Assembly (NCBI GenBank): GCA_022709525.1
Contig: JAKLIQ010000008.1
Location: 18,917-82,916, forward strand
Reading direction: 5' to 3'
Origin: Candidatus Omnitrophota bacterium
GTDB lineage: Bacteria > Omnitrophota > Omnitrophia > Omnitrophales > Aquincolibacteriaceae
Length of the DNA stretch: 64,000 bases
The notes below the pieces were generated by a model that was not told the DNA's origin, did no database searches, and worked only from the letters and a program-made list of their open reading frames with translations. Within the stretch, counting starts at the first letter, position 1; every line of letters begins with the position of its first letter. Of the stretch, positions 8,087-41,740 are shown piece after piece. A program made the position numbers and the translations under genes.

Positions 8087-9382
8087 TTACTGAAGCTCCG
8101 GATAAAGCGGAAATTTTTCCGTCAAGGCCTCGACGCGGGAAAGGACTGCGGCGAGGTTATCCTCTTTTTCCGGGGCCTGAAGCGTCTGGTCGATCAACTC
8201 CGCGATCAATTCCATTTCTTTTTCTTTCATGCCGCGCGTCGTGACCGCCGGCGTTCCCAACCGGACGCCGGAACCCTTGAAAGGTGATTCCTTGTCGAAC
8301 GGGATCATATTCTTATTGACCGTGATCTTTACTTTATCCAGAAGTTCCTGAACCTGTTTTCCGTTAAAACCTTTGACGGTCACATCGACAAGCATGAGAT
8401 GATTGTCTGTTCCCCCGGAGACGATCCTCCAACCGCGCGACGCCATTGCGGCCGCAAGCGCTTGGGCGTTCTTGACAATCTGGCCGCTATACGCTTTAAA
8501 TTCGGGACTAAGCGCTTCCTTGAGCGCGACGGCCTTCGCTGCGATCACATGCATCAGCGGGCCACCCTGGATGCCGGGAAATACGGCCGTATCGATGGCC
8601 TTTGCGTATTTTTCCTTACAAAGAATCAAACCGGCGCGCGGACCGCGAAGCGTCTTATGCGTGGTCGTGGTCACGATGTCGGCATAGGGCACGGGACTCG
8701 GATGGTGCCCGGTCGCAACAAGTCCCGCGAAATGGGCCATATCCACCATAAGGAGCGCGCCCACCTGATCGGCGATTTTCCGGCCGCGCTCAAAATCAAT
8801 GACCCGGGGATAAGCTGAAGCGCCGAGCAGGATCATCTTGGGTTTGTGTTCTAGGGCGAGTTTTTCGAGCTGGTCATAATCGATCCGCTCATCCTTGGGG
8901 CTTACCCCATAAGGGATGATCTCGTAGAACTTGCCCGAAAAGTTCATCTTGTGGCCGTGGGAAAGATGGCCGCCGTGCGTCAAGTCCATTCCGAGGATCT
9001 TATCGCCCGGTGACAAAAGAGCCATAAAGACCGCGATATTGGCCGAGGTGCCGCTATGCGGTTGGACATTCGCGTGTTCGGCCCCGAAAAGCTGTTTGGC
9101 GCGGTCGATCGCGAGTTGCTCGACCACATCGACGTTCTCGCAGCCGCCGTACCAACGCTTGGCCGGGTACCCTTCGGCGTATTTATTGGTGAGGACCGAA
9201 CCCATCGCTTCCAGCACCGGGATCGAGGTGAAATTCTCGCTTGCGATCAATTCGATATTCTCGTTCTGACGTTTGACTTCGGCGCGAATGGCCCGGTAAA
9301 TATCCGGGTCGCTTTTTTTCAGGAATGTTTGATCAACGGTGCTTCTGCTCGTAAGCCCTAATTTTGTTAACACGGACTTCAT
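8087..9382 (-). CDS. glyA: Serine hydroxymethyltransferase
   Basis: IELIASENF and the PLP-region motif HGGHLSHG. The track ORF is over-extended at the N-terminus; the start is likely near MKSVLTK (approximate). Confidence 0.9.
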
Positions 9383-23195: not shown

Positions 23196-26100
23196 TTAGG
23201 ATTGTGTTTTGACAGTATAAACCGTCTTAGGCTTCGATGATGTCGTTGTTGTGGTTGTTGTCGACGACGTGGATTGAGCTGGCGGATTGTAGGTGCTAGC
23301 CGGAGGAGAGCTGTCCTTATGTTTTCTATCGACAGCGCTGAAAACCGTATCCAGAATTCCCGGCAGAAGGCTACCCACGGGATTATAAGCGCTTGAAGTA
23401 TCTGTCCGGGTAGCCGCTTGATAAGCATCGACCCGGAGAGAACGGGTCAAGGTATTATCGCTGCGGCGGATATCTTTTTTTCTGCTGAATGGATCGACAA
23501 CAAGAGCCATTTTATACATTCCGGGCGTCGTAAACGCCGGAACATCATTTTTCCCCATGGCTTTTCCGGTTGCGGGAATATTCAACGTTGCCGGAACGGC
23601 CGCGATCAGCTGTCCGTTTAAAAGAAACCGCACTTCACTAAAAACAGCATCCAAGGGCTCTTTTTTTCTGTTCCGGACAGTATAGGAAACCCATCCGCGT
23701 TGTCCGACCATAATACGCGATACCGAATGATTGACCCCCGGGACCCAAAAGGACACATCATCCGCTACCAGATCACAATCCGCGGTTTCGGATGAAGTGC
23801 TCATCATAGGGCGACGGTCTTGTGTGTCCGTTGCGACACTTGTTCCCAAGACCGTAAAACCATGATCCTCGCTGTTATTGTCCCTATTCGTATCATTTTT
23901 CTGAAAAGGCGCCGGGTCCACAACGACATACATTGTATGTGGCCCGGTTTCCGTCAAAGCAGGAAGATCCACGCGGCCAACAGCATCGCGATGATTCGCC
24001 GGCACATTGACAATTTTATCAACATCAGCCAGGACCGCGCCGCGAGGCGTGATCACCTTGATATGGACCTTGGTGTTGTCGACGGAGCCGTCTTTTTTGT
24101 TATAAACCTTGAATTCGACATAGCCTTGCTCCCCAACGTAAGCTTTATTTCCGATATGACGTCCCGGATACCAGAAAGTCGGGATCTGTGCTTTTAAGTC
24201 GCAGACGGGTCCCGTTGGCGCTCCTGTCGGCGGCGGAGTGATGGGGACAAGGGAGACTTCGCGGCCCATGGGTTCGAGGATCCTGAAGCCTTCGACAACC
24301 TTGATATCACGTTCGATGGAATTGCGACTGTCAGAATCTGCGTGATTGCCCGGCAAAGGCGCGATGGTGAGTTTCATTTTGTGAATTCCCGGCGTCGCGA
24401 ACGAATAATCCTCTACTCGGACATACACCGGCCTATAAGGTTCATTAGCGACTGGCTGCGCCGGCCCTGCAAGTTGACCGTCCACGTAAAGTGATGCGAT
24501 GGCATACACGGGCGAATGATCGGTATTATAAAAAGTGCCAACAAGAGCACCTTTTCTCCCGACCGTTGTTTGGGTTACCGGGTCGCCGACGCGAGTGATC
24601 TCCGTGGGTGAATATTGGTTAAATTGGACATTCAGGCATGCGAGATCGTTACGCCCCCCTCTTGTCGTTAATTCAGAGTTTTGCACGTTCACAATGCTTT
24701 CTTTATGATTATTATTCTCATTGGTTTCCTGGATTCTGTTCTGCGGATCAAGGTCGTACGTAACCTTGTAGCTGCCGGCTTGCGTGAATTTGTAAGGAAC
24801 TTGGAACCATCCGTGATCATTGGCCGGCACTTCGGCCACGGTAACATTCCCTCCGGGGATAGTTCGTCCGTTCACTTTGATCGTAACACCGACATTGGAT
24901 TCATTGTAATTCGTATCATTAGCGACAAAACCCCTGAAATCCCCCGGCAAGTTGGGGATAACCGCGCTTTCATCTGTGCTGAATTCATGAAAATGGCCTT
25001 CGGCATCGGTATAACCATATTGGGCGTAACCAATATCCCCAAATCTCAAATCATGGGATTCATCGGTATAGACCGAAGCAGACGGAGGCTCGGACGGAAT
25101 AACCGTAAGCCCTCCTTCCCGTACATTGATGGTCGCAACCGCTGGATTAAGACCCCTCGCATTAGGCGCTTGCGCAGGATTAAATCCGGTCATACTAAAA
25201 GTAAGCGTATGCGGGCCCGCTTGATTAAAGACATAATGCTCTTTAACAAATCGGATATTTTCACGGGGCGCACAATGGTCGACATGATCATCATGAACGC
25301 CTTGCCCGTCGATATTCAAAAAGCGTGAGATATTATGGGCCGCTGTGTCCCCCAAATTGGTGGTAACCGAAATAATCCTTACCGGCTCGCCCACTACCGG
25401 CTCACGAACTTCATGACCATCCGCATCCATCAAAACAAAATCGGCCCAGGTAAGGTCCACTCCTTGACTGGCCGAAGGCGGGTTTGCTCCTGCGGGAAGA
25501 ACATTGACCAGAATGGGCGCGGGGCTGGGATTGTTCCGCGCATTGGCCGCCTGAGCAGGCCTGAAGCCGGTCATGCTTAAAGTCACTTGATGCTGGCCGG
25601 GCTGATTAAAAACATAATCGTTTTTAAAGAAAGGGATATTCTGACCCGGAGCACATTGCACCGCCGCGTCATTGAGAACCCCTTGGCCGTCGATATTCAG
25701 AAACCTCGAAATACCCGTTGTCGTTGTATCTCCCGAATTGACCGTGACTGAGAAAATATTGACCGGTACTCCGGCCGTCGGTTCTCGGACTTCTCGGCCA
25801 TTGGCATCGGTCATAATAAAGTCGCCCCATCCAAGATCTACGCCTTGGGTTTGCCCGCCTCCGGCCGGAGGCGCTCCTGCAGGCAAAACATTGACGGTGA
25901 CCGTCAACGGATTGGTGCCTCTGGCATTCGCGGCTTGCGCAGGGCTGAAACCGCTCATGGTAAGAGTAAACGTATTCGGACCAGGTTGGAAAAAGGTGTA
26001 GCCGTGAATGACATAAGGGGTACACTGACCCGGGGCGCACTGCGGCACGTTGTCATTGCCGCCAGCGCCATTCATGCTAAAAGAGCGCGTAATATTCAGG

Positions 26101-26810
26101 GCGGTTGTATCCCCGTTATTCCTGCTTGAGGCGATAATATTAACGGGCACTCCGACGACCGGCTCCCTCACGTCTTGGCCCGCGGCGTCCGTCATGACGA
26201 CCTGTTCCCACGTTAGGTCGACGCCTTGGGTCTGGCCTCCGCCCGGCGGATTTCCGCCCGCGGCTTGAGGCCATATAAGAGCTGACGCTTGATTGTTGGC
26301 CGGGTCTTCCGCTACGATCGGGGCAACAAGGCTTATTTTTGCCATGATCGTGCGCTCACCTTCGATGTTGAACATCCATCCTGCCGGGACCGTGGATTCC
26401 CCCACCGGAATGGGGTAATTATCTTCAAAAAGAAGGTTGTTATTTTCAATCCACTGGATATGAACGGTTACTGGGATTTGAAAACTATTAATAACATCAA
26501 GAACCAAATTTCCGGGAACTCCCACGGTGGGCTGATTGGTTCTTTGACCATTGACTTCAAACCATATGTCCCATGCCGCGATGTCATTAGCGCCGAGATT
26601 CGCGGGGCCTACGAGGCCTCCAGGGGCTACAGGACCCGCGCAGCCTCCGGTAGGTTGTGAACCGGTCGAAGTAAGTTGCCCTAAGTCGACATTGGGCTGG
26701 CAACCACCACAACCGGAAAAAGAAAAAGAAAACGACGCAACAACAAGAATAACAACCGCGAGGAAAAAAACTTTCTTCAGGATCATCATAGGGCGCTCCT
26801 CCGGATTCAT
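23196..26810 (-). CDS. Large (1204 aa) secreted/surface protein with multiple CARDB-like domains and three internal ~125-aa tandem repeats
   Basis: N-terminal signal peptide with a possible lipobox (FSGC). Recurring CARDB-type motif ends (NENNN, ETNENNN, NDTNRDNN). Three near-identical repeats (GGGQTQGVDL...PAQAANARG...). The C-terminal tail is Ser/Thr-rich (STSSTTTTTTTSS). Confidence 0.7.
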   Translation of the reverse strand: MNPEERPMMILKKVFFLAVVILVVASFSFSFSGCGGCQPNVDLGQLTSTGSQPTGGCAGPVAPGGLVGPANLGANDIAAWDIWFEVNGQRTNQPTVGVPGNLVLDVINSFQIPVTVHIQWIENNNLLFEDNYPIPVGESTVPAGWMFNIEGERTIMAKISLVAPIVAEDPANNQASALIWPQAAGGNPPGGGQTQGVDLTWEQVVMTDAAGQDVREPVVGVPVNIIASSRNNGDTTALNITRSFSMNGAGGNDNVPQCAPGQCTPYVIHGYTFFQPGPNTFTLTMSGFSPAQAANARGTNPLTVTVNVLPAGAPPAGGGQTQGVDLGWGDFIMTDANGREVREPTAGVPVNIFSVTVNSGDTTTTGISRFLNIDGQGVLNDAAVQCAPGQNIPFFKNDYVFNQPGQHQVTLSMTGFRPAQAANARNNPSPAPILVNVLPAGANPPSASQGVDLTWADFVLMDADGHEVREPVVGEPVRIISVTTNLGDTAAHNISRFLNIDGQGVHDDHVDHCAPRENIRFVKEHYVFNQAGPHTLTFSMTGFNPAQAPNARGLNPAVATINVREGGLTVIPSEPPSASVYTDESHDLRFGDIGYAQYGYTDAEGHFHEFSTDESAVIPNLPGDFRGFVANDTNYNESNVGVTIKVNGRTIPGGNVTVAEVPANDHGWFQVPYKFTQAGSYKVTYDLDPQNRIQETNENNNHKESIVNVQNSELTTRGGRNDLACLNVQFNQYSPTEITRVGDPVTQTTVGRKGALVGTFYNTDHSPVYAIASLYVDGQLAGPAQPVANEPYRPVYVRVEDYSFATPGIHKMKLTIAPLPGNHADSDSRNSIERDIKVVEGFRILEPMGREVSLVPITPPPTGAPTGPVCDLKAQIPTFWYPGRHIGNKAYVGEQGYVEFKVYNKKDGSVDNTKVHIKVITPRGAVLADVDKIVNVPANHRDAVGRVDLPALTETGPHTMYVVVDPAPFQKNDTNRDNNSEDHGFTVLGTSVATDTQDRRPMMSTSSETADCDLVADDVSFWVPGVNHSVSRIMVGQRGWVSYTVRNRKKEPLDAVFSEVRFLLNGQLIAAVPATLNIPATGKAMGKNDVPAFTTPGMYKMALVVDPFSRKKDIRRSDNTLTRSLRVDAYQAATRTDTSSAYNPVGSLLPGILDTVFSAVDRKHKDSSPPASTYNPPAQSTSSTTTTTTTSSKPKTVYTVKTQS
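25100..26260. repeat. Three tandem ~375-bp intragenic repeats inside the CARDB protein gene
   Basis: Protein-level repeats of about 125 aa at 55-70% identity imply DNA repeats. Similar DNA blocks are visible (for example ccggtcat...ttaaagtcacttgatgctggccgggctgattaaaaacataatcg against ccggtcat...gcccgcttgattaaagacataatgc). Confidence 0.5.
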
Positions 26811-32240: not shown

Positions 32241-32831
32241 CTACATGCTGAGCGATTTTTTTGCTTGTTTGCTCGCTTTTTCGGCTTCTTTTTGTTTCTT
32301 CTTCGCTTCTTCTGCAGCTTTCTTTTTCGCCTTCTCGGCTTCGCGTTGCGCTTTCTTTTTCGCCTCTTCGGCCTCTTTTTGTTTCTTTTTGGCCAATTTT
32401 TCGGCCTCGGCTTTCTGAGCTTTCAGTTTTTTCTCGGATTCAATTTTCTTTTTGGCCTCTTCGGCTTTCTTCTTGGCTTTTTCGGCTTCGCGCTCGGCCT
32501 GCTTTTTGGCTTTCTCCGCTTCGCGTTCCGCCTTTTTCTTGGCTTCTTCGGCCTCTTTTTGTTTCTTTTTCGCTTCTCTTTCGGCCTCTTTCTTCGCCTT
32601 CGCGGCCTCTCGTTCGGCTTTTTCCGCTTCTTTCTTACTTAAACCGGGAGGCATATTCCCTTCCCAGCCTTTTTTCTCGCCCTTTCCCCAGCCTGCGGGA
32701 TTGGTGTTCTCCTCCTCGGCAAAGGCCAAGCTACCGCCTAAACTGAGTCCCAGCACTAACACAAAAACACACATCCGCATAAAGATGTTTGCTTTCATGA
32801 TCTTGCCCTCCTCTCGTTGAATAAAAAACAC
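32241..32831 (-). CDS. Secreted Lys/Glu/Ala-repeat protein, paralogue 1
   Basis: 196 aa with a signal peptide. Conserved head PAGWGKGEKKGWEGNMPPGLSKKEAEK, then about 120 aa of (KKxAEREAEKA) repeats. Confidence 0.55.
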   Translation of the reverse strand: MFFIQREEGKIMKANIFMRMCVFVLVLGLSLGGSLAFAEEENTNPAGWGKGEKKGWEGNMPPGLSKKEAEKAEREAAKAKKEAEREAKKKQKEAEEAKKKAEREAEKAKKQAEREAEKAKKKAEEAKKKIESEKKLKAQKAEAEKLAKKKQKEAEEAKKKAQREAEKAKKKAAEEAKKKQKEAEKASKQAKKSLSM

Positions 32832-32836
32832 TGTGA

Positions 32837-33583
32837 TCAGGACGCGTTCTTCTTCGCTTCTTTTTCCGCGCGCTTTGCTTCGCGCTTCGCCTGTTTTTCA
32901 GCTTTTTTTGCAGCTCTCTTCGCGTCACGTTCCTGCCGCTTGATATCCCGCTTGGCTTTGGCTGCCTGATAATCAGCCTCCGCCTTAGCGCGATCGGCAG
33001 CGCGGTCGGCTTTCAGTTTCGCCAGTCTCTCTTCGTTCTTTTTCCTCTCAATGTCCCGCTCGGCTTTTTTTGCTTCGTATTGGGCCTTTTCTTCGGCTTT
33101 CTTCGCTTCGCGCTCGGCTTTCTTCTTGGCTTTCTTTGCTTCATTTTCTGCTTTCTTTTTGGCCGCCTCCTTTTCATTTTCCGCTTTCTCTTTGGCTTTT
33201 TGAGCTTCCTTTTCGGCCTCTTTTTTAGCCTTCTCCGCTTCCTTTTGCGCTTTCTTCTCGGCTTTCTCGGCTTCTTTTTGCTTTTTTTTCGCTTCTTTCT
33301 CGGCTTCCTTGGCAGCTTTTTCAGCTTTCTTTTGTTCTTTTTTAGAAGCCTTTTCGGCTTTCTTTTGAGCTTTCTTTGCCTCTTTGTCAGCTTTCTTTTG
33401 CGTTTTTTTGGCCTCTTTTTCGCTTAGGCCGGGGGGCACGTTCGTTTCCCAACCTTTTTTCTCGCCTTTTTCCCAACCCGAAGGACTAGTGCCATTTTCT
33501 TCAGCAAAAGCAATGCCTCCGCCTAAACTCAATCCCCAAGCAATTAAAAAAGTGCATACCCATTGGCTCATCTTAGTTTTCAT
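32837..33583 (-). CDS. Secreted Lys/Glu/Ala-repeat protein, paralogue 2
   Basis: 248 aa with a signal peptide and the same head (PSGWEKGEKKGWETNVPPGLSEKEAKK) followed by KAE-type repeats. Tandem duplicate of 32241..32831. Confidence 0.55.
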   Translation of the reverse strand: MKTKMSQWVCTFLIAWGLSLGGGIAFAEENGTSPSGWEKGEKKGWETNVPPGLSEKEAKKTQKKADKEAKKAQKKAEKASKKEQKKAEKAAKEAEKEAKKKQKEAEKAEKKAQKEAEKAKKEAEKEAQKAKEKAENEKEAAKKKAENEAKKAKKKAEREAKKAEEKAQYEAKKAERDIERKKNEERLAKLKADRAADRAKAEADYQAAKAKRDIKRQERDAKRAAKKAEKQAKREAKRAEKEAKKNAS

Positions 33584-34331: not shown

Positions 34332-36086
34332 TCAAACATCCACGGCCAGATCAGCCGTTGACGCAACCTGTTCGGGCGTGATCGGTGATGGAGCGATCGA
34401 ACGGCGCTTCATCCCCCGGGTTAAAAGCGCGGCCTCCATCACCTCCTTGAACACCGGAGCCGCCACGGTGCCGCCATAATAGAGAGGCCTTGGCTCATCC
34501 AGAACAACGACCATCGCGTAACGGGGATCGTCTGCGGGAGCGAACCCCACGAACGAGGACATGAACGCACTATGGGAATACCCCTTGCCCCCTGGAAGGA
34601 TCTTCTGACCGGTACCGGTCTTGCCGCCGACCGGAATATCCGGTATTTTAGCTTTAGTGCCGGTGCCTCTTTCCACGACCTGTTTCAAGATCTCGCGCAT
34701 TATAGCGGCGATTTCTGGCTTGATGACCTGCTGCCTTATTACGGGCTTTTTTTCTTTTAGCGTCACGCCTGCCGGGTCCTGAACTTTAGAAATGATATAG
34801 GGACGCATGAGGTAACCTCCATTCGCGATCACCGCTATAGCGTTCACCATTTGAAGGGCCGTCACCATAACCTCCTGTCCCATGGGAATATTATAAGGAG
34901 AGGTTTTGGACCACTGAGAAGGCGGCCGCGTATAACCGGGCGCCTCCCCCGCCATATCGATCCCGGCACGCACGCCGAAACCGAATTTCTGCACGTAATC
35001 CTGAAACTTGGCGGGGCCCATTTTTTGAGCGATCTTGACCGTCCCGATATTGCTTGATTTAACAATGATCTCGCTCATTGGAAGCGTCCCGTAAGCGTGA
35101 ACATCACGTAATGTTTTGATGCCGTAATTCCATTTTCCATTCTCGCAAAAAAAGGTTGTTTCCGGTTTCACCGCATCCTCATTGAGGGCGCCGCTTGCGG
35201 CCACGATCTTGAAAACGGAGCCCGGTTCATACATATCTGTGATGGCGCGGTTGCGCTTAGCGTCTGCTCCGACTTTGGCGTAGTGGTTCGGATCAAAGCC
35301 CGGTTGATTCGCCATCGCCAGGATTTCGCCTGTCTTCGGATCCATAACGATCGCCCACGCGCCCTTAGCCTTCCATTGCTTGAAAGCGGACTCGAGCGCT
35401 TTTTCGGTCAAATATTGAAGGTGTTGGTCGATCGTTAATACCACCCGGTTCCCGTCGATCACAGGAAGGCTTTTCACTTCGAATGCTTTGATCTCGCGCC
35501 CTTTAGCGTCGCGCTGCGTGACGCGTTTTCCGGGTTTTCCTCTCAGATCGCCATCCATGGAACGCTCAATGCCCTCCACGCCTTCGTTGTCGACGGTAGA
35601 AAAACCCAACACCTGCGCGAGCATGGACCCCTGCGGGTAAAACCGCTTATATTCTTCCAAAATGCCCAAGGCCGGCGAATTGAGCTTCCGGATCTTGTCG
35701 GATTCCTCGAAGGTCACGCGGCGTTTAAGCCAGACGAACGCTTTATCCCGCGATAACCGCTCCAGCACCCATTTCCGGTCAAGGCCCAGGATCTTCGCGA
35801 CCTCAGAGCTCAGGTCTTTGCGTTCTCCCTCCTCCAGCACGCGAGGAACGGCGTAGATCGAAGGGATCTTCAAATTGGTAACGAACTCCTTGCCGTTTCG
35901 GTCCGTGATGGGACCCCGGAGCGGCGGGACATCCACGCTAATGTAATGCTGGCGATGCGCCAGTTGGAGAAGCGAGGACTGGTGAAAGCAGGTCAATTGA
36001 ACGATCTGGTAAATGATCAAACAGAAAAAAATAAAGAGGACAATGTAGAGGAACCAGAACCGACGCGGCGAAAGCAACGCTCGCAT
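34332..36086 (-). CDS. ftsI: Division-specific peptidoglycan transpeptidase FtsI (PBP3)
   Basis: 584 aa with N-terminal TM, PBP dimerisation and transpeptidase domains (SVFK, SSN, KTGT). Lies downstream of ftsL. Confidence 0.85.
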   Translation of the reverse strand: MRALLSPRRFWFLYIVLFIFFCLIIYQIVQLTCFHQSSLLQLAHRQHYISVDVPPLRGPITDRNGKEFVTNLKIPSIYAVPRVLEEGERKDLSSEVAKILGLDRKWVLERLSRDKAFVWLKRRVTFEESDKIRKLNSPALGILEEYKRFYPQGSMLAQVLGFSTVDNEGVEGIERSMDGDLRGKPGKRVTQRDAKGREIKAFEVKSLPVIDGNRVVLTIDQHLQYLTEKALESAFKQWKAKGAWAIVMDPKTGEILAMANQPGFDPNHYAKVGADAKRNRAITDMYEPGSVFKIVAASGALNEDAVKPETTFFCENGKWNYGIKTLRDVHAYGTLPMSEIIVKSSNIGTVKIAQKMGPAKFQDYVQKFGFGVRAGIDMAGEAPGYTRPPSQWSKTSPYNIPMGQEVMVTALQMVNAIAVIANGGYLMRPYIISKVQDPAGVTLKEKKPVIRQQVIKPEIAAIMREILKQVVERGTGTKAKIPDIPVGGKTGTGQKILPGGKGYSHSAFMSSFVGFAPADDPRYAMVVVLDEPRPLYYGGTVAAPVFKEVMEAALLTRGMKRRSIAPSPITPEQVASTADLAVDV

Positions 36087-36089
36087 TTT

Positions 36090-36482
36090 TTAGGAGGAAA
36101 GGTCGGTCTTGGCCTGGGCCGTCTGGATCCAACGACCGAGAAAGCTTGAAACTTCGGACGACAACGTGCGCGTGGCTTTATGCTCCTGCGATGCCGGAAT
36201 AGCCAATTCCGGCACGGGAGGGATCTCCACGACCTGGATCTTATTGGGAAGCGCGAGACCCATGTCGTGCCGTTTCATTTTTGCCTCAAGAAGGCGGGGG
36301 GCCCTCAATTGATCGACCTTATATTGGAACCTGCGAAGGAGTTCTTGCTTTTCGGCAACGGCGCGGGAATTTTTGTGGATATCGAGAGAGACAAGAACGG
36401 AAGCGATCTGAAGATGCACAAAAAGAAGCATCGAACAGGTCAACGTCGCGATAAGAATTAAAACTTTTCCGCTGCCTTTCAT
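36090..36482 (-). CDS. ftsL: Cell division protein FtsL-like
   Basis: 130 aa with a single TM plus coiled coil, between rsmH and ftsI. Confidence 0.6.
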   Translation of the reverse strand: MKGSGKVLILIATLTCSMLLFVHLQIASVLVSLDIHKNSRAVAEKQELLRRFQYKVDQLRAPRLLEAKMKRHDMGLALPNKIQVVEIPPVPELAIPASQEHKATRTLSSEVSSFLGRWIQTAQAKTDLSS

Positions 36483-37387
36483 GATATTTTTTCAATGACC
36501 CGGAGTTTAGCGCTTCTTGATCTTGGATTATTCAATATTTCCGAACGTTTTGCAACAAGTGGTTTACGAAAAATCAATTTTCCGCGCTCTTCAAGGTCCC
36601 ATGCCCGGAACTGTTGCTTGACGATCCGGTCCTCAAGGGAATGAAAACTGATGACTCCGAGCCTTCCGCCCGGAACGAGGTGCTTGAAAGCGCCGCTCAT
36701 GCCTTCTTTCAGGGCTTCCAGCTCGTCGTTGACGCCGATCCGGAGGGCTTGAAAAACTTTTGTGGCGGGATGGCGCCGCGCCCAACCGGGCCGCTTTCCT
36801 TTCTCAAACCGCAGATGGGACGGAAGGGCCTTTTCAAGGGCTTGATGGAGGTCTTCGACGGTCTTGAGAGGATGATGGCGACGCGTCTCTACGATCACCT
36901 TGGCAAAACGCCGCGATCGACGTTCTTCGCCGTAATGATAGAAGAGGTCTGCCAGCTGAACTTCGGACATCTGCGTGAGCAGGTCCGAGGCCTTGCGGCC
37001 GATCTCAGGGTTCATCCGCATATCCAATTCCCCTTCCCCTTGGAAACTGAAACCGCGCTTTCCGTCCGCCAATTGTTCCGACGAGATCCCGATATCCAGA
37101 AGCACGGCATCGAATGCCTTGACCTCTAACCGCATAAAAACTTTGTCTAAATTCCTGAAATTCTCGTGGACCAAAACGATCCGCGGGTCTTTTTCGAAGA
37201 GCGCCCGGCACCGCCGGATCGCGTCCGGATCCTGATCGAATCCGACCAGTTTCCCGGACGGCCCTATCTTTTCCAGGATCGCTTCCGCGTGCCCCCCGCC
37301 CCCGAGCGTACCGTCCATCACGACGGCGCCCGGCTTGAGCGCCAGAGCGTCCAGAACTTCTTGTAAAAGAACGGGCTTATGCCGCAA
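36479..37387 (-). CDS. rsmH: 16S rRNA (cytosine1402-N4)-methyltransferase RsmH/MraW
   Basis: 302 aa with the MRHKPVLLQEVLDAL N-terminus and an SAM-methyltransferase fold. Confidence 0.9.
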   Translation of the reverse strand: MRHKPVLLQEVLDALALKPGAVVMDGTLGGGGHAEAILEKIGPSGKLVGFDQDPDAIRRCRALFEKDPRIVLVHENFRNLDKVFMRLEVKAFDAVLLDIGISSEQLADGKRGFSFQGEGELDMRMNPEIGRKASDLLTQMSEVQLADLFYHYGEERRSRRFAKVIVETRRHHPLKTVEDLHQALEKALPSHLRFEKGKRPGWARRHPATKVFQALRIGVNDELEALKEGMSGAFKHLVPGGRLGVISFHSLEDRIVKQQFRAWDLEERGKLIFRKPLVAKRSEILNNPRSRSAKLRVIEKIS

Positions 37388-37715
37388 AACTAAGGATCGC
37401 CTCTTCTTCCGACGGATAGCTTTCCATAAGACCGTTCACGCCGATCATCTGGAAAGTCCGTTCGACCTCGGGGCGTAAATTGCAAAGTTTGATATCCCCT
37501 TTTTGCTCGCGCACCTTGCGGAGGCGATCCACCAAGATCCCGACTCCCGCCAGCTCCACGCGCCGCGTATCCTTCAGATCCAGCAATAAGCGCTTGTGGT
37601 TGCGGTGAAGCAGGCGATTCATGCGGTCCTTCATTTTGATCATGGTAAGGGCATTAAGATCTCCGTTAAAACGCAACACATCGACCCCGATCTTCGTCCT
37701 GGCGTGATAGACCAT
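37377..37715 (-). CDS. STAS-domain protein (anti-sigma-factor antagonist family)
   Basis: 112 aa. The VLRFNGDLNA...LLLDLKDTRRVELAGVGILV pattern resembles SpoIIAA/RsbV. Embedded between mraZ and rsmH. Confidence 0.65.
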   Translation of the reverse strand: MVYHARTKIGVDVLRFNGDLNALTMIKMKDRMNRLLHRNHKRLLLDLKDTRRVELAGVGILVDRLRKVREQKGDIKLCNLRPEVERTFQMIGVNGLMESYPSEEEAILSFAA

Positions 37716-37728
37716 GATGACTCCTTTC

Positions 37729-38166
37729 CTATTCGGATACTAGCTTTTCTGCGAGTTCTTCAAAATGGTTCTTATGATGATCGAAAAATCCCTGCCACTT
37801 CTCTTTCGCCCAGATCTCGATACGGCTCGAAACGCCGACGATCACCACATCGGTTTTGATGTCGGCATAACTTTTCAAATAATCCGGGATCAAGACCCTT
37901 CCCTGTTTGTCGCAAACGACTTCACAGGCACCGGAAAAGAAAAGGCGGTTGAAGGTCCTGGATTCGGATTTAGTAAAGGGCATATCGCGAAACTTTTTTT
38001 CTTCCGTCTTCCATTGCTCTTCGGTGAAAACGAACAGACATTGATCGAGACCGCGGGTAATAAAGAAACGCTCAACATAGCGTTCTTTAAAGATCTCGCG
38101 GAATTTGGCGGGGATCATCACGCGGCTTTTTGCGTCGATCACATGTTCGTATTCACCGTAAAACAT
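37729..38166 (-). CDS. mraZ: Division/cell wall cluster transcriptional regulator MraZ
   Basis: 145 aa with two MraZ repeats. The first reads IDAKSRVMIPAKFRE and the second DKQGRVLIPDYL. Confidence 0.85.
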   Translation of the reverse strand: MFYGEYEHVIDAKSRVMIPAKFREIFKERYVERFFITRGLDQCLFVFTEEQWKTEEKKFRDMPFTKSESRTFNRLFFSGACEVVCDKQGRVLIPDYLKSYADIKTDVVIVGVSSRIEIWAKEKWQGFFDHHKNHFEELAEKLVSE

Positions 38167-38188: not shown

Positions 38189-38258
38189 TCCCACTATTTA
38201 CCACTTTTCCCCACTTTATTATCGACGGTAGTATAACTTTCCCTTAATTTCGTGTCAA
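38189..38258 (-). promoter_or_regulatory. mraZ promoter (TTGACA-17-TATACT) with a downstream MraZ operator (three GTGG[G/T] direct repeats at 10-bp spacing)
   Basis: Minus-strand sense: TTGACAcgaaattaagggaaagtTATACT...aaGTGGGgaaaaGTGGTaaataGTGGGaatg, placed just upstream of the mraZ ATG. It matches the MraZ box architecture. Confidence 0.5.
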
Positions 38259-38399
38259 CAGTCTTTTTTATAGGGATGGTATGAATAAAGAACTCCCTTG
38301 GAGACGGCTTTTTGTAGAGAGGAAACGGGTAAAAAACGCCTAAGAGGCAGGATGGTCGGGGTCGGAATCTAAACGAGGCGTTTCAGCAAAGACGAAGAA

Positions 38400-39116
38400 T
38401 TACGATTCGAAATAAAGGATGCGGGAACAGTTCTCGCAGACAATGATCTGTTCGCCGAGACGGATCTCATTGATCAATTGAGGCCGAAGCTGCATTTGGC
38501 AAGCCGCACAGACTTCGCCATTCACCGCAGCGAGCGCAAGCCCCTGTTTTTTGACGACGATCCGGTTATAAAGCTCCGCAAGTTCGGGCGGAAGCTGCGT
38601 AACGGCTTCTTCGCGTTGTTTTTTAAGATCGACAAGGCGTCCTTGCAGATTTTTTTCCTGCGTCACTAATTCGCTATCTTTATCCTGGAACGATTTGGTC
38701 ACCAAAGCGACTTTTTCTTTTTCTTTTCGCGTCTCATCCTTGGCGGCTTCGACCTCATCCAGGATATGGATGATCCCCTCCTCAAGAAGGGAATTATCGG
38801 CCTTAAGCGAAGCGATCTCCTGCTGGAGCGCCGCATATTCCTTGTTCGTCTTCACCTGCGACAATTGCCCGTCAAGTTTTTTGATCTGCATTTCCTTCTG
38901 GGAAAGCTCGAGCTCTTTTTCTTTAAGCTTTAGCTGGATGTCCTTAAGCATTTTCTCGAGTTCGGTGAAATGAGTTTTTTCGAGCTCAAGGTCGGCCTTA
39001 AGCTGGGCTCTCTGCGACGGGATCTCTTCCAGCAAGATATGGGCGTGATGGATCTCGCTGTCAAGTTGCTGGGCTTTTTTTAAGATATCAAGGTTCTGGG
39101 TAATGGGGCTTGGCAT
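38400..39116 (-). CDS. Coiled-coil protein with C-terminal C4 zinc ribbon (COG1579-like)
   Basis: 238 aa with a long coiled coil, then CAACQMQL...CENCSRILY. Confidence 0.6.
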   Translation of the reverse strand: MPSPITQNLDILKKAQQLDSEIHHAHILLEEIPSQRAQLKADLELEKTHFTELEKMLKDIQLKLKEKELELSQKEMQIKKLDGQLSQVKTNKEYAALQQEIASLKADNSLLEEGIIHILDEVEAAKDETRKEKEKVALVTKSFQDKDSELVTQEKNLQGRLVDLKKQREEAVTQLPPELAELYNRIVVKKQGLALAAVNGEVCAACQMQLRPQLINEIRLGEQIIVCENCSRILYFES

Positions 39117-39187
39117 AATTAGAGGGGATTATAAGAGAGATAGAAGACGCCATCAAGAACGAAATGAGAGGATCGCCTGAAAGGAAA

Positions 39188-39721
39188 TTAGATCCTTCGC
39201 AGGAAGCGGGATAGTTCGGCCAGTCCCCGGATCTCTTCGGGGGTCAAGCGCGCGTTCTGCAAAAAGCTTTTGGAAGAAGGGACAGCGCTCGGAACTTCTC
39301 CTTTCGCTAAAGACGTGAGCGCATAGGCGGGAGACGGGACCCATTTGCAGATCCGCGCGCTCGTTCTCTCTCCTACCACGGCAAAAAGGCCTCGGTATTC
39401 AAAAAAACTGAGCCGGTCGCTGAAACCGTTCATTTCCAGGATCCGGTGCCGGTCCAATTCCGGATAGAAAAAATAAAGCGCGGCGTTGTTCGGCATCAGC
39501 ACCCAAAGCTTTCTGATCTCCTGCTGGAGCTCTTCTTTCGAAAAATCTCTCATGGAGCGGTAAAAGATGCGCACCCATATTTGTGCGTCCTTGCTCTTGA
39601 ACAAGAAGGGGGCTCCGTTCGCATCTTCAAGGATCACCTTGTCGTTGTGAAGCTCCTGAACCGACGAACGGATCGACTGGAAGATCTCTTGCCGGTGGGC
39701 GCGTTCTTGAAGGGCGATCAT
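39188..39721 (-). CDS. Hypothetical protein (about 178 aa)
   Basis: Start inferred from an ATGA overlap with the upstream gene's stop at 39718. No recognisable domain. Confidence 0.4.
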   Translation of the reverse strand: MIALQERAHRQEIFQSIRSSVQELHNDKVILEDANGAPFLFKSKDAQIWVRIFYRSMRDFSKEELQQEIRKLWVLMPNNAALYFFYPELDRHRILEMNGFSDRLSFFEYRGLFAVVGERTSARICKWVPSPAYALTSLAKGEVPSAVPSSKSFLQNARLTPEEIRGLAELSRFLRRI

Positions 39722-40503
39722 TGGGAAACTCCCGAAAAAGATTCGATCCAGCCAGCCAACATATATTTCTGAAGGGCCGGCTTCGCGTTCCATGACTGGT
39801 AGCGTAAAAGCTCCGCATGCAAAGCCGCCGAAAAATGCTTCGAGGGATCCGCAAGGTCCAGCCACCCGAGCCAAGCCAGATGGGTATCAAGATGCCTGAA
39901 AACCAAATCCGAAAAACGCTCGAAGATCATCTCTCCCTGGACCCCTTCCCCGCCTCCCGCCAAAGCGATATAGAACTCGAGCTGGGGATTTAGCGCGAGA
40001 CCGGCTTTCATCATCTTATAACCATCAGTTAAAGATTCAGGGTCCGGCTCGAGCAATAAGACCCATTTATCGAGAAAAGCGATCGTTTTTTCAAATTGAA
40101 AAAGATGGCGGTATTCAAAATCCAGGAAAATATCCCGGCTTTGCAAGATCCCGCCTGCATGGCGCGGCAGAGGAGCGTTCATAAGATCACGAAATTCGTC
40201 CCAATAAAGACAAAAACGTTCCAGCCGCTCCCCGAAAGGTTCGGGCGTATGGTTCAGGGATCCTGAAAGAACAGGAGCGGAACGCGGCAGGAGACTGATC
40301 AGCGAACAATCTTTATCCTGGGAGGCGATTTGGGAAGCGAAAAACGTGTTTAAGAAAAGAGAATCATTGTCATGTCCGGGACTTGAAACGGCCAAAACCT
40401 GCACTTCCGGCGGGCGGCGGGCCGGAAGCTCTTCGGACTCGACGCAAAAAAGCGGCGAAAGGTCCTTGAGTCCCCGCGTTAATTTCTTCTCGAGATCCAT
40501 CAT
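39718..40503 (-). CDS. ParA/MinD-like pseudo-ATPase (degenerate Walker A)
   Basis: About 261 aa. Start inferred from an ATGA overlap with the parA-like stop at 40500. VLAVSSPGHDNDSLFLNTFFASQIASQDKDCSLISLLP aligns to the ParA P-loop region (IIAIANQKGGCGKTTTS...VLLVDLDP) but the GKT is lost. Later segments keep the fold (WVLLLEPDPESL... resembles the ILDCPP switch region). Confidence 0.45.
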   Translation of the reverse strand: MMDLEKKLTRGLKDLSPLFCVESEELPARRPPEVQVLAVSSPGHDNDSLFLNTFFASQIASQDKDCSLISLLPRSAPVLSGSLNHTPEPFGERLERFCLYWDEFRDLMNAPLPRHAGGILQSRDIFLDFEYRHLFQFEKTIAFLDKWVLLLEPDPESLTDGYKMMKAGLALNPQLEFYIALAGGGEGVQGEMIFERFSDLVFRHLDTHLAWLGWLDLADPSKHFSAALHAELLRYQSWNAKPALQKYMLAGWIESFSGVSQ

Positions 40504-41600
40504 GCAAACTCCATATAAGAGTCCACGCCGCCATAAGCGTTCTCTTTTTGCATCGGCTGGCTCGGATCCACCTGCCATTCCCCATCCACGATGAACTTGT
40601 ACCGGAAGGTTTTAAGCTGCACGGGAATGACCCTCTGCCAGAGCCCTTCCTGATTGCGCTTGACGAGGGGCTCGGGGATCCAATGGTTGAAATCCCCGGC
40701 GATCTCTACCGAGGAAGCGATCTTGCTGAAGAACTGGAAAAGGATCCCATCCGAGATCTGGCGCGGACCAAAATGATTTTTATAAACCTTTTCCCACCCC
40801 AGCTCTTTCTCGGGCAGTTTCCGGTTCCAATCGCGTTCAAGATATTCCACGGCGAGGTTTAAATAGTCCTGGAACGCTTGCGATTGCGGCGCGTACTGCG
40901 CGATGCTCTGCCCCGCCGCGGCGGCTTCTTTGAGACTGATATGATCATGAATGATGGTCGTAAAAAGACGGTTCTGGAAATGGGCCCGGACCTCGTCGTA
41001 GATCTCCTGCGAAAAATTCATTTGGGAGTTGTAGATCGTCAGAAGCGCGTGTACCAGCAATGGCGTTTCGCGGCTCCGGTTGACGATCTGTAGGGTCTCC
41101 GAGATCTTGGCAAGCCCGTGAAGCGAGAAAAAAGAGGGTTCGATCGGGATGATGATCTCATCGGCCGCATTCAGAGCGTTCCAGGTGAGGACCCCAAGAT
41201 TGGGCGGACAATCAAGGATTACAAAATCGTAGAAGCGTTGTTCCTCGGCCAGGCGATTCATCAGTTCGCGCAGTTTGAGGTGATAGTGGGGCATAAAACC
41301 GAATTCTTCCTCAAGGGCATTGAGACTGGCGTTGCAGGGAATAAGATCAAGATCATTTTGCAGGGACCGGATCACTTGAGAAACCGGCGGACCGGCCCTC
41401 TGGAAAGGACTTAAAAGATCGTAGAGCGTGGGGGTGCCCTTCGGGGTTTTGACCCCTAGCCCGCACGTGGAATGCCCTTGGGGATCCAGATCGACGAGAA
41501 GGACCTTTTTCTGGAGAAAATTCAAACACGCAGAGAAATTGATGCTGGTCGTGGTCTTCCCGCATCCGCCTTTTTGATTCGCGATCGCGATGATTCTCAA
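40500..41600 (-). CDS. ParA/MinD-family ATPase fused to a C-terminal AMPK-beta glycogen-binding (CBM48-like) domain
   Basis: Deviant Walker A motif NQKGGCGKTT, DLDPQG and ILDCPP. The C-terminal ~80 aa (IAGDFNHW...FRYKFIVDGEWQVDPSQP...GGVDSYMEF) match the AMPK1_CBM/CBM48 glycogen-binding domain consensus (GSFNNW...YKFFVDGQWTHDPSEP). The track start is a TTG. Confidence 0.8.
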   Translation of the reverse strand: MRIIAIANQKGGCGKTTTSINFSACLNFLQKKVLLVDLDPQGHSTCGLGVKTPKGTPTLYDLLSPFQRAGPPVSQVIRSLQNDLDLIPCNASLNALEEEFGFMPHYHLKLRELMNRLAEEQRFYDFVILDCPPNLGVLTWNALNAADEIIIPIEPSFFSLHGLAKISETLQIVNRSRETPLLVHALLTIYNSQMNFSQEIYDEVRAHFQNRLFTTIIHDHISLKEAAAAGQSIAQYAPQSQAFQDYLNLAVEYLERDWNRKLPEKELGWEKVYKNHFGPRQISDGILFQFFSKIASSVEIAGDFNHWIPEPLVKRNQEGLWQRVIPVQLKTFRYKFIVDGEWQVDPSQPMQKENAYGGVDSYMEFA

Positions 41601-41740
41601 AAAGTTCGTCTCCTTGAATAGAAATGTATCGCATTAATGTAACGACTTAGCCGGGCAAAGCTTTACAAAAATGGAGTGTTTTAAAGGGGTGTTTTGGGGA
41701 AGGAAAAATCCGCTCTGGGAAGGGCCGCGACCCGGATGGA

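Follow-up and report, generated by a model that had tools for sequence, protein, structure and literature searches.

A ParA-type ATPase carrying a CBM48 module and its predicted MinD-fold pseudo-ATPase partner: a candidate glucan-tied positioning module in Omnitrophota and other phyla

ATPases of the ParA/MinD class place chromosomes, plasmids, carboxysomes, chemoreceptor arrays, flagella and the division ring, and glycogen is the commonest carbon store of bacteria; to our knowledge, nothing is known about the placement or inheritance of bacterial glycogen granules. Whether these two subjects could meet in a single system is the question raised by a locus in a 64,000-nucleotide stretch of DNA from a Candidatus Omnitrophota bacterium (contig JAKLIQ010000008.1, positions 18,917 to 82,916), referred to here as the window. 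Four consecutive genes on the minus strand of the window, G1 to G4 (Table 1), had been described in an initial annotation as a ParA-type ATPase fused to a glycogen-binding domain (G1), a catalytically dead copy of the same ATPase (G2), a protein without assignment (G3) and a coiled-coil zinc-ribbon protein (G4), together forming a possible system for positioning glycogen granules. Following up on this description, we arrived at a two-gene unit, and we read G1 and G2, joined by G3 as a lineage-specific accessory, as a candidate ParA/MinD-type positioning module in which the ATPase would be tied to alpha-glucan, a reading that we hold at about even.

G1 is predicted to be a Soj-like deviant-Walker-A ATPase with a complete ATPase site. 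The motifs by which a ParA-type gene had initially been recognized here (NQKGGCGKTT, DLDPQG and ILDCPP) were all found, and the protein matched the Pfam family AAA_31 over residues 1-178 with an E-value of 6.8e-48 (163 bits, cutoff 27), with CbiA, BcsQ and MipZ as further Pfam matches of its ATPase part. The nearest solved structures to this domain were those of a chromosomal ParA (8ray, 2.9e-47) and of T. thermophilus Soj (1wcv, 8e-43). In an alignment of 33 homologues (alignment A2, 55-88% identity), K10, G11, G12, K15, T16 and T17 of the deviant Walker A motif were invariant, as were D37 and D39 of DLDPQG and D130 of ILDCPP. The architecture of a ParA domain followed by CBM48 was identical in the best 120 homologues of G1, the named ones belonging to Candidatus Omnitrophota, and database labels for the relatives of G1, G2 and G3 were limited to 'AAA family ATPase', 'chromosome partitioning protein' and 'hypothetical'.

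One position of the ATPase domain differs between lineages. At the site that we take to be the non-specific DNA-binding arginine of this family (R189 of B. subtilis Soj, R238 of M. xanthus ParA), G1 has a serine, the T. thermophilus Soj segment IPRNVRLAEAP being aligned to IHDHISLKEAA of the window. Across Omnitrophota this position is occupied by S, L, A, Q or M, versus R or K in 22 of the 24 non-Omnitrophota fusions, and a K or R two residues further on is kept in all fusions aligned.

The assignment of the G1 C-terminus to the AMPK-beta type of glycogen-binding module was borne out by profile searches, in which both models scored above their curated cutoffs: AMPK1_CBM with an E-value of 3.2e-10 (40.5 bits, cutoff 26.8), and CBM_48, over residues 277-359, with 1e-8 (35.8 bits, cutoff 22.4). 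When the C-terminal 96 residues were searched with phmmer, the best matches were the carbohydrate-binding module of AMPK beta1 (1z0m, 5.7e-7) and other AMPK beta1/beta2 domains (~5e-7), followed by GlgB, pullulanase and the starch phosphatase SEX4, that is, by starch- or glycogen-active proteins only. In AMPK beta1 (1Z0M), the residues that contact the sugar (cyclodextrin) are, as we take it, W100, K126, W133, L146, G147 and N150; in our alignment, W100, K126, W133, G147, N150 and N151 correspond to W307, K335, W342, G357, D360 and S361 of G1. We then compared 58 Omnitrophota and 24 other sequences, representing 82 loci from six phyla, with AMPK beta1 at these positions. The W100 site was tryptophan in 82/82 sequences and the W133 site in 80/82, the K126 site was K or R in 81/82, the G147 site glycine in 79/82 and the N150 site N or D in 78/82, and position 146 was aromatic or aliphatic. 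Overall, the domain has drifted to 36-40% identity between phyla, and so the retention of these residues is the pattern expected of a selected, working sugar site. Binding of glucan by the C-terminal domain of G1, as judged from its sequence, is therefore well supported, and we infer that glycogen would be the cargo of the G1-G2 system.

Between the two domains of G1 lies a linker (residues 253-290, window ~40731..40844) in which W258, P263, L267-G268-W269 and G278-P279 are invariant in Omnitrophota only, the linker of the other phyla being acidic; this Omnitrophota-specific motif may constitute a docking site. A HMMER search of a whole protein library with the C-terminal 114 amino acids of G1 was dominated by proteins with 3-18 tandem copies of this type of carbohydrate-binding module, the only clear ParA fusion being P0386. 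As a separate observation, this library of 1.8 billion proteins holds thousands of proteins with 2-18 tandem copies of CBM48 close to that of G1 (seen among P0350-P0499), many of them ~480 amino acids long with four copies.

What, then, is the protein encoded directly downstream? G2 starts at an ATG within an ATGA overlap with the G1 stop codon (40503), confirming both the overlap and the length of 261 amino acids given in the initial annotation. Pfam and NCBIfam searches with G2 returned no match, and its 109 database relatives are, wherever named, all from Omnitrophota. A family profile built from 41 homologues reached FlhG (4rz2) with an E-value of 0.0015, and the AlphaFold model of G2 (pLDDT 81, pTM 0.79), when searched with Foldseek, matched FlhG 4rz3 best (E 9.5e-9, TM 0.54-0.57), followed by FleN (5j1j), 8p53 and MinD 1hyq. 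Thus, the proposal that G2 shares the ATPase fold of G1 holds at the level of the fold, whereas that of G2 as a copy of G1 does not: its nearest structures are FlhG, FleN and MinD, and a comparison of the G1 and G2 families by hhalign gave an E-value of 0.65, or 0.28 with a deeper G2 alignment, and we rejected a recent paralogue accordingly.

The destroyed P-loop that had been noticed in G2, VLAVSSPGHDNDS, is indeed present. Where MinD-type proteins have GKGGxGK[ST], the loop reads S-S-P-G-H-D-N-D-S, with P42 replacing the signature lysine and D47 the catalytic lysine, and in the model it is located directly after strand 34-40, the position of a P-loop. Across the 41 homologues, V39, S40, S41, P42, D47 and S48 are nearly invariant and the loop is without any lysine. 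Because of the match to the MinD/FlhG fold and the loss of both P-loop lysines, G2 is predicted to be a pseudo-ATPase of the MinD fold, unable to bind ATP in the usual way. The predicted structure further contains a C-terminal helix at residues 244-254 (KYMLAGWIESF; pLDDT ~80-86).

Conservation within G2 is highest over the first 20 residues, with the consensus KKLVRGLKDISPLF in the 41 homologues, and within the motif KKLxRGLKDISPLF the residues L8, R10, G11, L12, S16 and F19 are invariant. In the model, a low-confidence helix spans residues 2-15, a disordered stretch residues 21-27, and the folded domain begins at residue 34. This peptide resembles the N-termini of ParB proteins, for example that of T. 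thermophilus Spo0J, SGLGRGLEALLPK (GLGRGLEALL), the likeness being one of motif, with an L-x-R-G-L core. ParB binds ParA through an unstructured motif at its N-terminus, composed of aliphatic and basic residues, which is both required and enough for this contact; as a free peptide, the motif boosts the ATPase activity of ParA (PMC12462528). Since the conserved peptide of G2 resembles this ParA-binding peptide, we infer that G2 is an ATPase-activating partner of G1, of the ParB/McdB type. Its body probably dimerizes, presents two peptides and holds a further partner, which in most Omnitrophota may be G3.

Is this pairing peculiar to Omnitrophota? Using the linker-plus-CBM alignment as query, we scanned GTDB at one genome per species, obtained 171 relatives and examined the best 80 of them. 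Of these 80, 56 were from Omnitrophota and the others from Myxococcota/'Deltaproteobacteria', Nitrospirota, Phycisphaerae, Termititenax, a Spirochaetales metagenome-assembled genome (MAG) and Desulfotignum. In all non-Omnitrophota loci but two, a ParA domain was found in the same frame ~840 nucleotides upstream of CBM48, and Pfam confirmed AAA_31 and AMPK1_CBM in six representatives. The gene downstream of the fusion began with a G2-type peptide motif in 52 Omnitrophota loci as well as in Nitrospirota, Desulfobacterota, Phycisphaerae and Myxococcota (Table 1).

The bodies of these partners were related to that of G2 in three of the four phyla. Comparison by hhalign of G2 with the Myxococcota partner gave a probability of 91.9% (E 7e-7, 195 columns) and with the Nitrospirota partner 90.6% (E 1.3e-6, 211 columns), and a profile comparison with the Phycisphaerae partner gave 75% (E 2.5e-5); the Nitrospirota partner by itself matched MinD 1hyq with an E-value of 0.009, and all three partners have degenerate P-loops. 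In two Desulfobacterota loci (L076 and L083, each at 8266..8922), the partner shares with G2 the RGL peptide only, its body consisting of an HTH_17 domain and a coiled coil. As the Desulfobacterota partner keeps the peptide on a non-ATPase body, the peptide, rather than the fold, would be the conserved contact. On the evidence of these sequences, at least five phyla have conserved the pair, which is not specific to Omnitrophota, and the conserved unit appears to be two genes, a ParA-CBM48 fusion and a peptide-bearing partner. The view of the four genes as one unit is not upheld by synteny, the pair recurring in other phyla without G3, G4 or the dcw (division) cluster, and G3 being missing in some Omnitrophota.

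Several of the related loci showed features of their own. A Nitrospira sp. fusion (L080, 5843..7561) is 571 amino acids long, with an insert of ~200 amino acids between ParA and CBM48. In Desulfotignum and the Spirochaetales MAG (L077, 7947..8288, and L065, 7734..8606), this type of CBM48 was found without a ParA domain. In Myxococcota a Ppx/GppA phosphatase gene flanks the pair (L066, 5928..6860; L060, 5845..6810), Pfam-confirmed in L060 only. Two genes off in L066 (10408..11769) lies a gene that looks, from visual inspection of its N-terminal sequence, like a phosphoglucomutase/phosphomannomutase (PGM/PMM) gene, the sole loose link to sugar-phosphate metabolism that we saw.

How might such a pair work? 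ATP-dependent dimerization is common to ParA/MinD proteins, and MinD dimers gain membrane affinity through two weak C-terminal helices. By the same logic, ATP would dimerize G1 and thereby pair two CBM48 modules, which would give the dimer a high-avidity grip on glycogen particles. In phyla other than Omnitrophota, which keep the Soj arginine, the G1 dimer could also sit on the nucleoid and bridge nucleoid and granule; in Omnitrophota, with a small or hydrophobic residue in place of this arginine, glycogen is perhaps the main binding surface. The N-terminal peptide of G2 would then dock on the G1 dimer and trigger ATP hydrolysis, upon which G1 would return to monomers and let go. Repeated cycles could space glycogen granules or pass them to daughter cells, or else the granule surface could be the matrix along which a G2-held object is placed. 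Glycogen synthesis is encoded by most Omnitrophota MAGs of one survey, which also reports genera of this phylum that have trehalose synthesis and lack that of glycogen (PMC8542988).

Several observations weigh against this model. Neither in the window nor in the loci of four other phyla did a gene of glycogen metabolism turn up beside the pair. It is the partner and not the ATPase that holds the cargo in the ParA systems known so far, and the roles that we assign to glycogen, as cargo or matrix, and to the body of G2 are therefore guesses. The likeness of the G2 peptide to ParB is that of a short motif, and a PDB search with a 24-residue family-consensus version of it returned no match. A few loci (L064 and L080) are without a partner motif nearby. 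Lastly, the pair in Omnitrophota lies beside the division cluster, which could indicate a role in division.

This last observation leads to an alternative that we regard as unlikely, namely that the system acts in division-site or chromosome-related positioning, with CBM48 serving as a sensor by which glycogen or an oligosaccharide tunes the ATPase, as in AMPK, coupling division or segregation to the carbon reserve, and with the MinD-like body of G2 contacting the division machinery. Besides the absence of glycogen genes nearby, it can draw on the position of the pair directly upstream of G4-mraZ-STAS-rsmH-ftsL-ftsI in ~40 Omnitrophota species, on the similarity of the G1 ATPase domain to chromosomal ParA/Soj and on that of the G2 fold to FlhG and MinD, regulators of flagellar number and of the division site. 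However, linkage to the dcw cluster was seen in no other phylum and is absent from four Omnitrophota loci, and since the stretch from rplU to ftsI is collinear across Omnitrophota, the adjacency may be plain synteny and says little on function. Furthermore, G2 is without the MinD ATP site and has no recognizable MinC- or FtsZ-binding feature, and the roles of sensor and cargo binding can coexist.

Two other explanations concern the individual proteins. The C-terminus of G1 could be CBM48-like only, an Ig-like protein-binding module or one that binds another glycan, with G2 and G3 choosing an unrelated cargo. CBM48 does belong to a broad class of beta-sandwich folds, its Pfam E-values here are moderate (1e-8 to 1e-10), the Omnitrophota linker motif may dock a protein, and the pair has no genomic tie to glycogen genes; yet the sugar-contact residues of AMPK beta1 are kept across six phyla amid the divergence of the rest of the domain, and its matches are confined to proteins that act on starch or glycogen, making this explanation improbable in our view. 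Still less plausible, to the point that we consider it very improbable, is the active/inactive heterodimer of the initial annotation, in which G2 would take the place of a second G1 across the nucleotide sandwich interface. Both proteins do have a fold of the MinD/ParA class, and translational coupling favors their synthesis at 1:1. We found no evidence for such a heterodimer, though: the two families have no detectable relation, the sandwich dimer is formed by a signature lysine and a P-loop that are missing from G2, and a conserved ParB-like peptide on a flexible linker, pointing to an activator role, is the hallmark of partners that bind outside of the ParA homodimer, the Desulfobacterota partner even carrying this peptide without any ATPase fold. 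An anti-phage defense system was also considered and rejected, PADLOC returning only weak P-loop and coiled-coil noise (E 7e-4 or worse) and the locus being a core syntenic one.

The glucan-tied module that we favor shares parts of its design with several known systems. It resembles chromosomal ParABS in that the G1 ATPase is nearest to ParA/Soj and the partner gene lies directly downstream and opens with a basic-aliphatic L-x-R-G-L stretch, like the GLGRGLxAL of ParB. It differs from ParABS in that G2 has a dead MinD-like domain instead of a ParB/Srx CTPase or helix-turn-helix domain, and in that G1 carries CBM48 and, in Omnitrophota, has lost the arginine of the Soj R189 type; neither the window nor any of 83 loci yielded a ParB in a tblastn search with Spo0J as query, and no parS site was seen, no search aimed at it having been made. 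With McdA/McdB and other ParA systems for non-DNA cargo it has in common a ParA-type ATPase, a small, fast-evolving partner with an expected activating N-terminal peptide, and a presumed cytoplasmic body as cargo. In contrast to these systems, the cargo-binding module is on G1 and not on the partner, the body of G2 is a folded pseudo-ATPase and not disordered or coiled-coil, and the cargo would be a polysaccharide granule.

The logic of MinD/MinE is likewise similar, with a C-terminal surface-binding appendage that would gain avidity upon ATP dimerization and a release triggered by the partner, and G2 has the MinD/FlhG fold; here, however, the appendage is a glucan-binding domain of ~90 residues and not an amphipathic helix, G1 is Soj-like, and it is the inactive partner that has the MinD fold. 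FlhG and FleN provided the best structural matches of G2 (4rz3, 5j1j, 8p53), but G2 is without their Walker A lysines and without a Pfam match, and no flagellar genes are nearby. The C-terminus of G1 has its closest sequence matches in the CBM48 domains of AMPK beta, SEX4, GlgB and pullulanase, and the sugar-contact residues are kept in it. In those proteins the domain brings an enzyme to glucan, be it a kinase, phosphatase or glycoside hydrolase, whereas a fusion to ParA was described in no paper found. PomXYZ of Myxococcus xanthus also combines a ParA-like ATPase with non-ParB activators that act via an N-terminal peptide, and has a link to cell division; its activators PomX and PomY, however, are of the coiled-coil or scaffold kind and not pseudo-ATPases, and PomZ is without CBM48.

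What is familiar in the G1-G2 pair, then, is the class of ATPase and the logic of the partner peptide, while novelty would lie in the glucan module fused to the ATPase, in a pseudo-MinD protein as partner and in the likely cargo. In the full-text literature searched, which leaves most subscription journals outside its coverage, we found no relevant paper on ParA/MinD together with CBM48, AMPK1_CBM, glycogen binding or granules, or on Omnitrophota together with ParA and division, in keeping with the initial view of the system as undescribed. A ParA with a built-in glycogen-binding module and a defined candidate activator peptide offers a testable candidate for the placement of granules, from Omnitrophota to Myxococcota and Nitrospirota. 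It would also provide a natural example of a MinD-fold pseudo-ATPase recruited as the partner of a ParA with an intact ATPase site, and of a fusion that places the cargo or matrix module on the ATPase instead of on an adaptor. A bolder version of this proposal, which we put forward tentatively and think unlikely, is that ParA-CBM48 is the first ParA/MinD ATPase to use the surface of a storage polysaccharide as its matrix, neither nucleoid nor membrane, switched on by the avidity of its ATP dimer and off by its pseudo-MinD partner, in an ancient machine of several phyla that spaces or partitions granules or uses them as a track.

Table 1. Positions of the G1-G4 genes and their parts in the window, and N-terminal peptides of partner proteins in other phyla
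Feature	Position	Strand	Sequence	Description
G1	40500..41600	-		366 amino acids and stop; ParA/Soj-type deviant Walker A ATPase with C-terminal CBM48 (predicted)
G1 ATPase domain	40845..41600	-		Residues 1-252; KGGCGKTT (signature lysine K10, K15), DLDPQG (D37, D39), ILDCPP (D130)
G1 CBM48 / AMPK-beta-type glycogen-binding module	40503..40772	-		Residues ~277-366
G2 partner	39718..40503	-		261 amino acids; N-terminal ParA-binding-like peptide, disordered linker, predicted MinD/FlhG-fold pseudo-ATPase domain
G2 N-terminal peptide	40444..40503	-	MMDLEKKLTRGLKDLSPLFC	Residues 1-20
G2 degenerate P-loop	40357..40401	-	QVLAVSSPGHDNDSL	Q35-L49; Asp47 at Walker A lysine position
G3 accessory	39188..39721	-		177 amino acids; alpha/beta core (1-126), disordered linker, C-terminal helix (161-176)
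G4 neighbor	38400..39116	-		Coiled-coil hairpin and C4 zinc ribbon (CT398/CdsZ/HP0958-like)
Partner N-terminal peptide, Nitrospirota			RRLGRGLEDISHYFIS	Gene directly after fusion
Partner N-terminal peptide, Desulfobacterota			QERGLAKVSHFFLS	Gene directly after fusion
Partner N-terminal peptide, Phycisphaerae			PDRGIDSIAHLFLS	Gene directly after fusion
Partner N-terminal peptide, Myxococcota			RRxLGDVLHYFIxEEEQ	Gene directly after fusion

We also characterized the two remaining genes of the block. The start of G3 lies in a second ATGA overlap, with G2 (39721), as had been noted before, the protein being one residue shorter than the 178 amino acids first given; G1 itself starts with a TTG codon nine bases past an AGGAG site, and through the two overlaps G1, G2 and G3 are translationally coupled. 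Pfam and NCBIfam searches with G3 gave no match, and its 121 relatives are, where named, almost all from Omnitrophota, with one fragment labeled Deltaproteobacteria. G3 diverges fast, being barely alignable at 60% G1 identity, and retains its length and position. Its model (pLDDT 75) consists of the alpha/beta core, disordered linker and C-terminal helix listed in Table 1, and G3 may have a weak likeness to the restriction-endonuclease-like (PD-(D/E)xK) fold; a Foldseek search of this model against the PDB found nothing significant. In L047, L058 and L059 there is no space for G3 between the partner and G4, and in L040 and L052 there is too little, and so G3 is an accessory of most, not all, Omnitrophota loci.

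G4, as initially described, is a coiled-coil zinc-ribbon protein, matching the Pfam families Zn_ribbon_9 (4.4e-12, 46.3 bits, cutoff 29.1) and CT398_CC (2.5e-10, 40.9 bits, cutoff 27), and is separated from the G3 stop by 71 nucleotides instead of the 72 reported. The NCBIfam equivalog model of CdsZ scored 86 bits against a cutoff of 275, and we therefore place G4 in the CdsZ/CT398/HP0958 family without regarding it as an equivalog. A promoter-like site is found in the gap between G3 and G4 (39156..39128, minus strand, 10/12) and a terminator-like hairpin past G4 (38349..38337, minus strand), both being consensus matches only, as is a further promoter-like site ahead of mraZ (38230..38258, minus strand, 11/12). 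Given the first two of these sites, G4 is probably a transcription unit of its own with its own promoter. G4 and the dcw cluster follow the pair in ~40 Omnitrophota loci and are not beside it in L012, L016, L023 and L046 (all Omnitrophota) or in any other phylum. We weighed whether either belongs to the system and decided against it, taking both for lineage-specific neighbors, as the pair recurs elsewhere without them.

The surroundings of the block in the window are those of a housekeeping region. On its 3' side lie mraZ, a STAS gene, rsmH, an ftsL-like gene and ftsI, and on its 5' side two CNNM/CorC genes, nadD, proA, proB and obg; mreB, PBP2, aroA, glyA, pur genes, ligA and rib genes are found elsewhere in the window, which is free of glycogen genes throughout. 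The division cluster (34332..38166, minus strand) is short, ending with ftsI, and the genes that come next are unrelated and include no mur or fts genes. The STAS (anti-sigma-antagonist) gene between mraZ and rsmH keeps its position across Omnitrophota loci.

Two other regions of the window deserve mention. At 32241..32831 and 32837..33583 (minus strand) lies a tandem pair of paralogous genes. In both, a signal-peptide-like N-terminus leads into long K/E/A-rich repeats with a period of 33 nucleotides; they have no Pfam match and account for the strong skew in AT and GC between 32 and 34 kb. Lastly, the gene at 23196..26810 (minus strand) encodes a protein of 1204 amino acids whose sole recognizable domain is CARDB, and adjoins a flavodoxin-like gene and a XerC-type recombinase.

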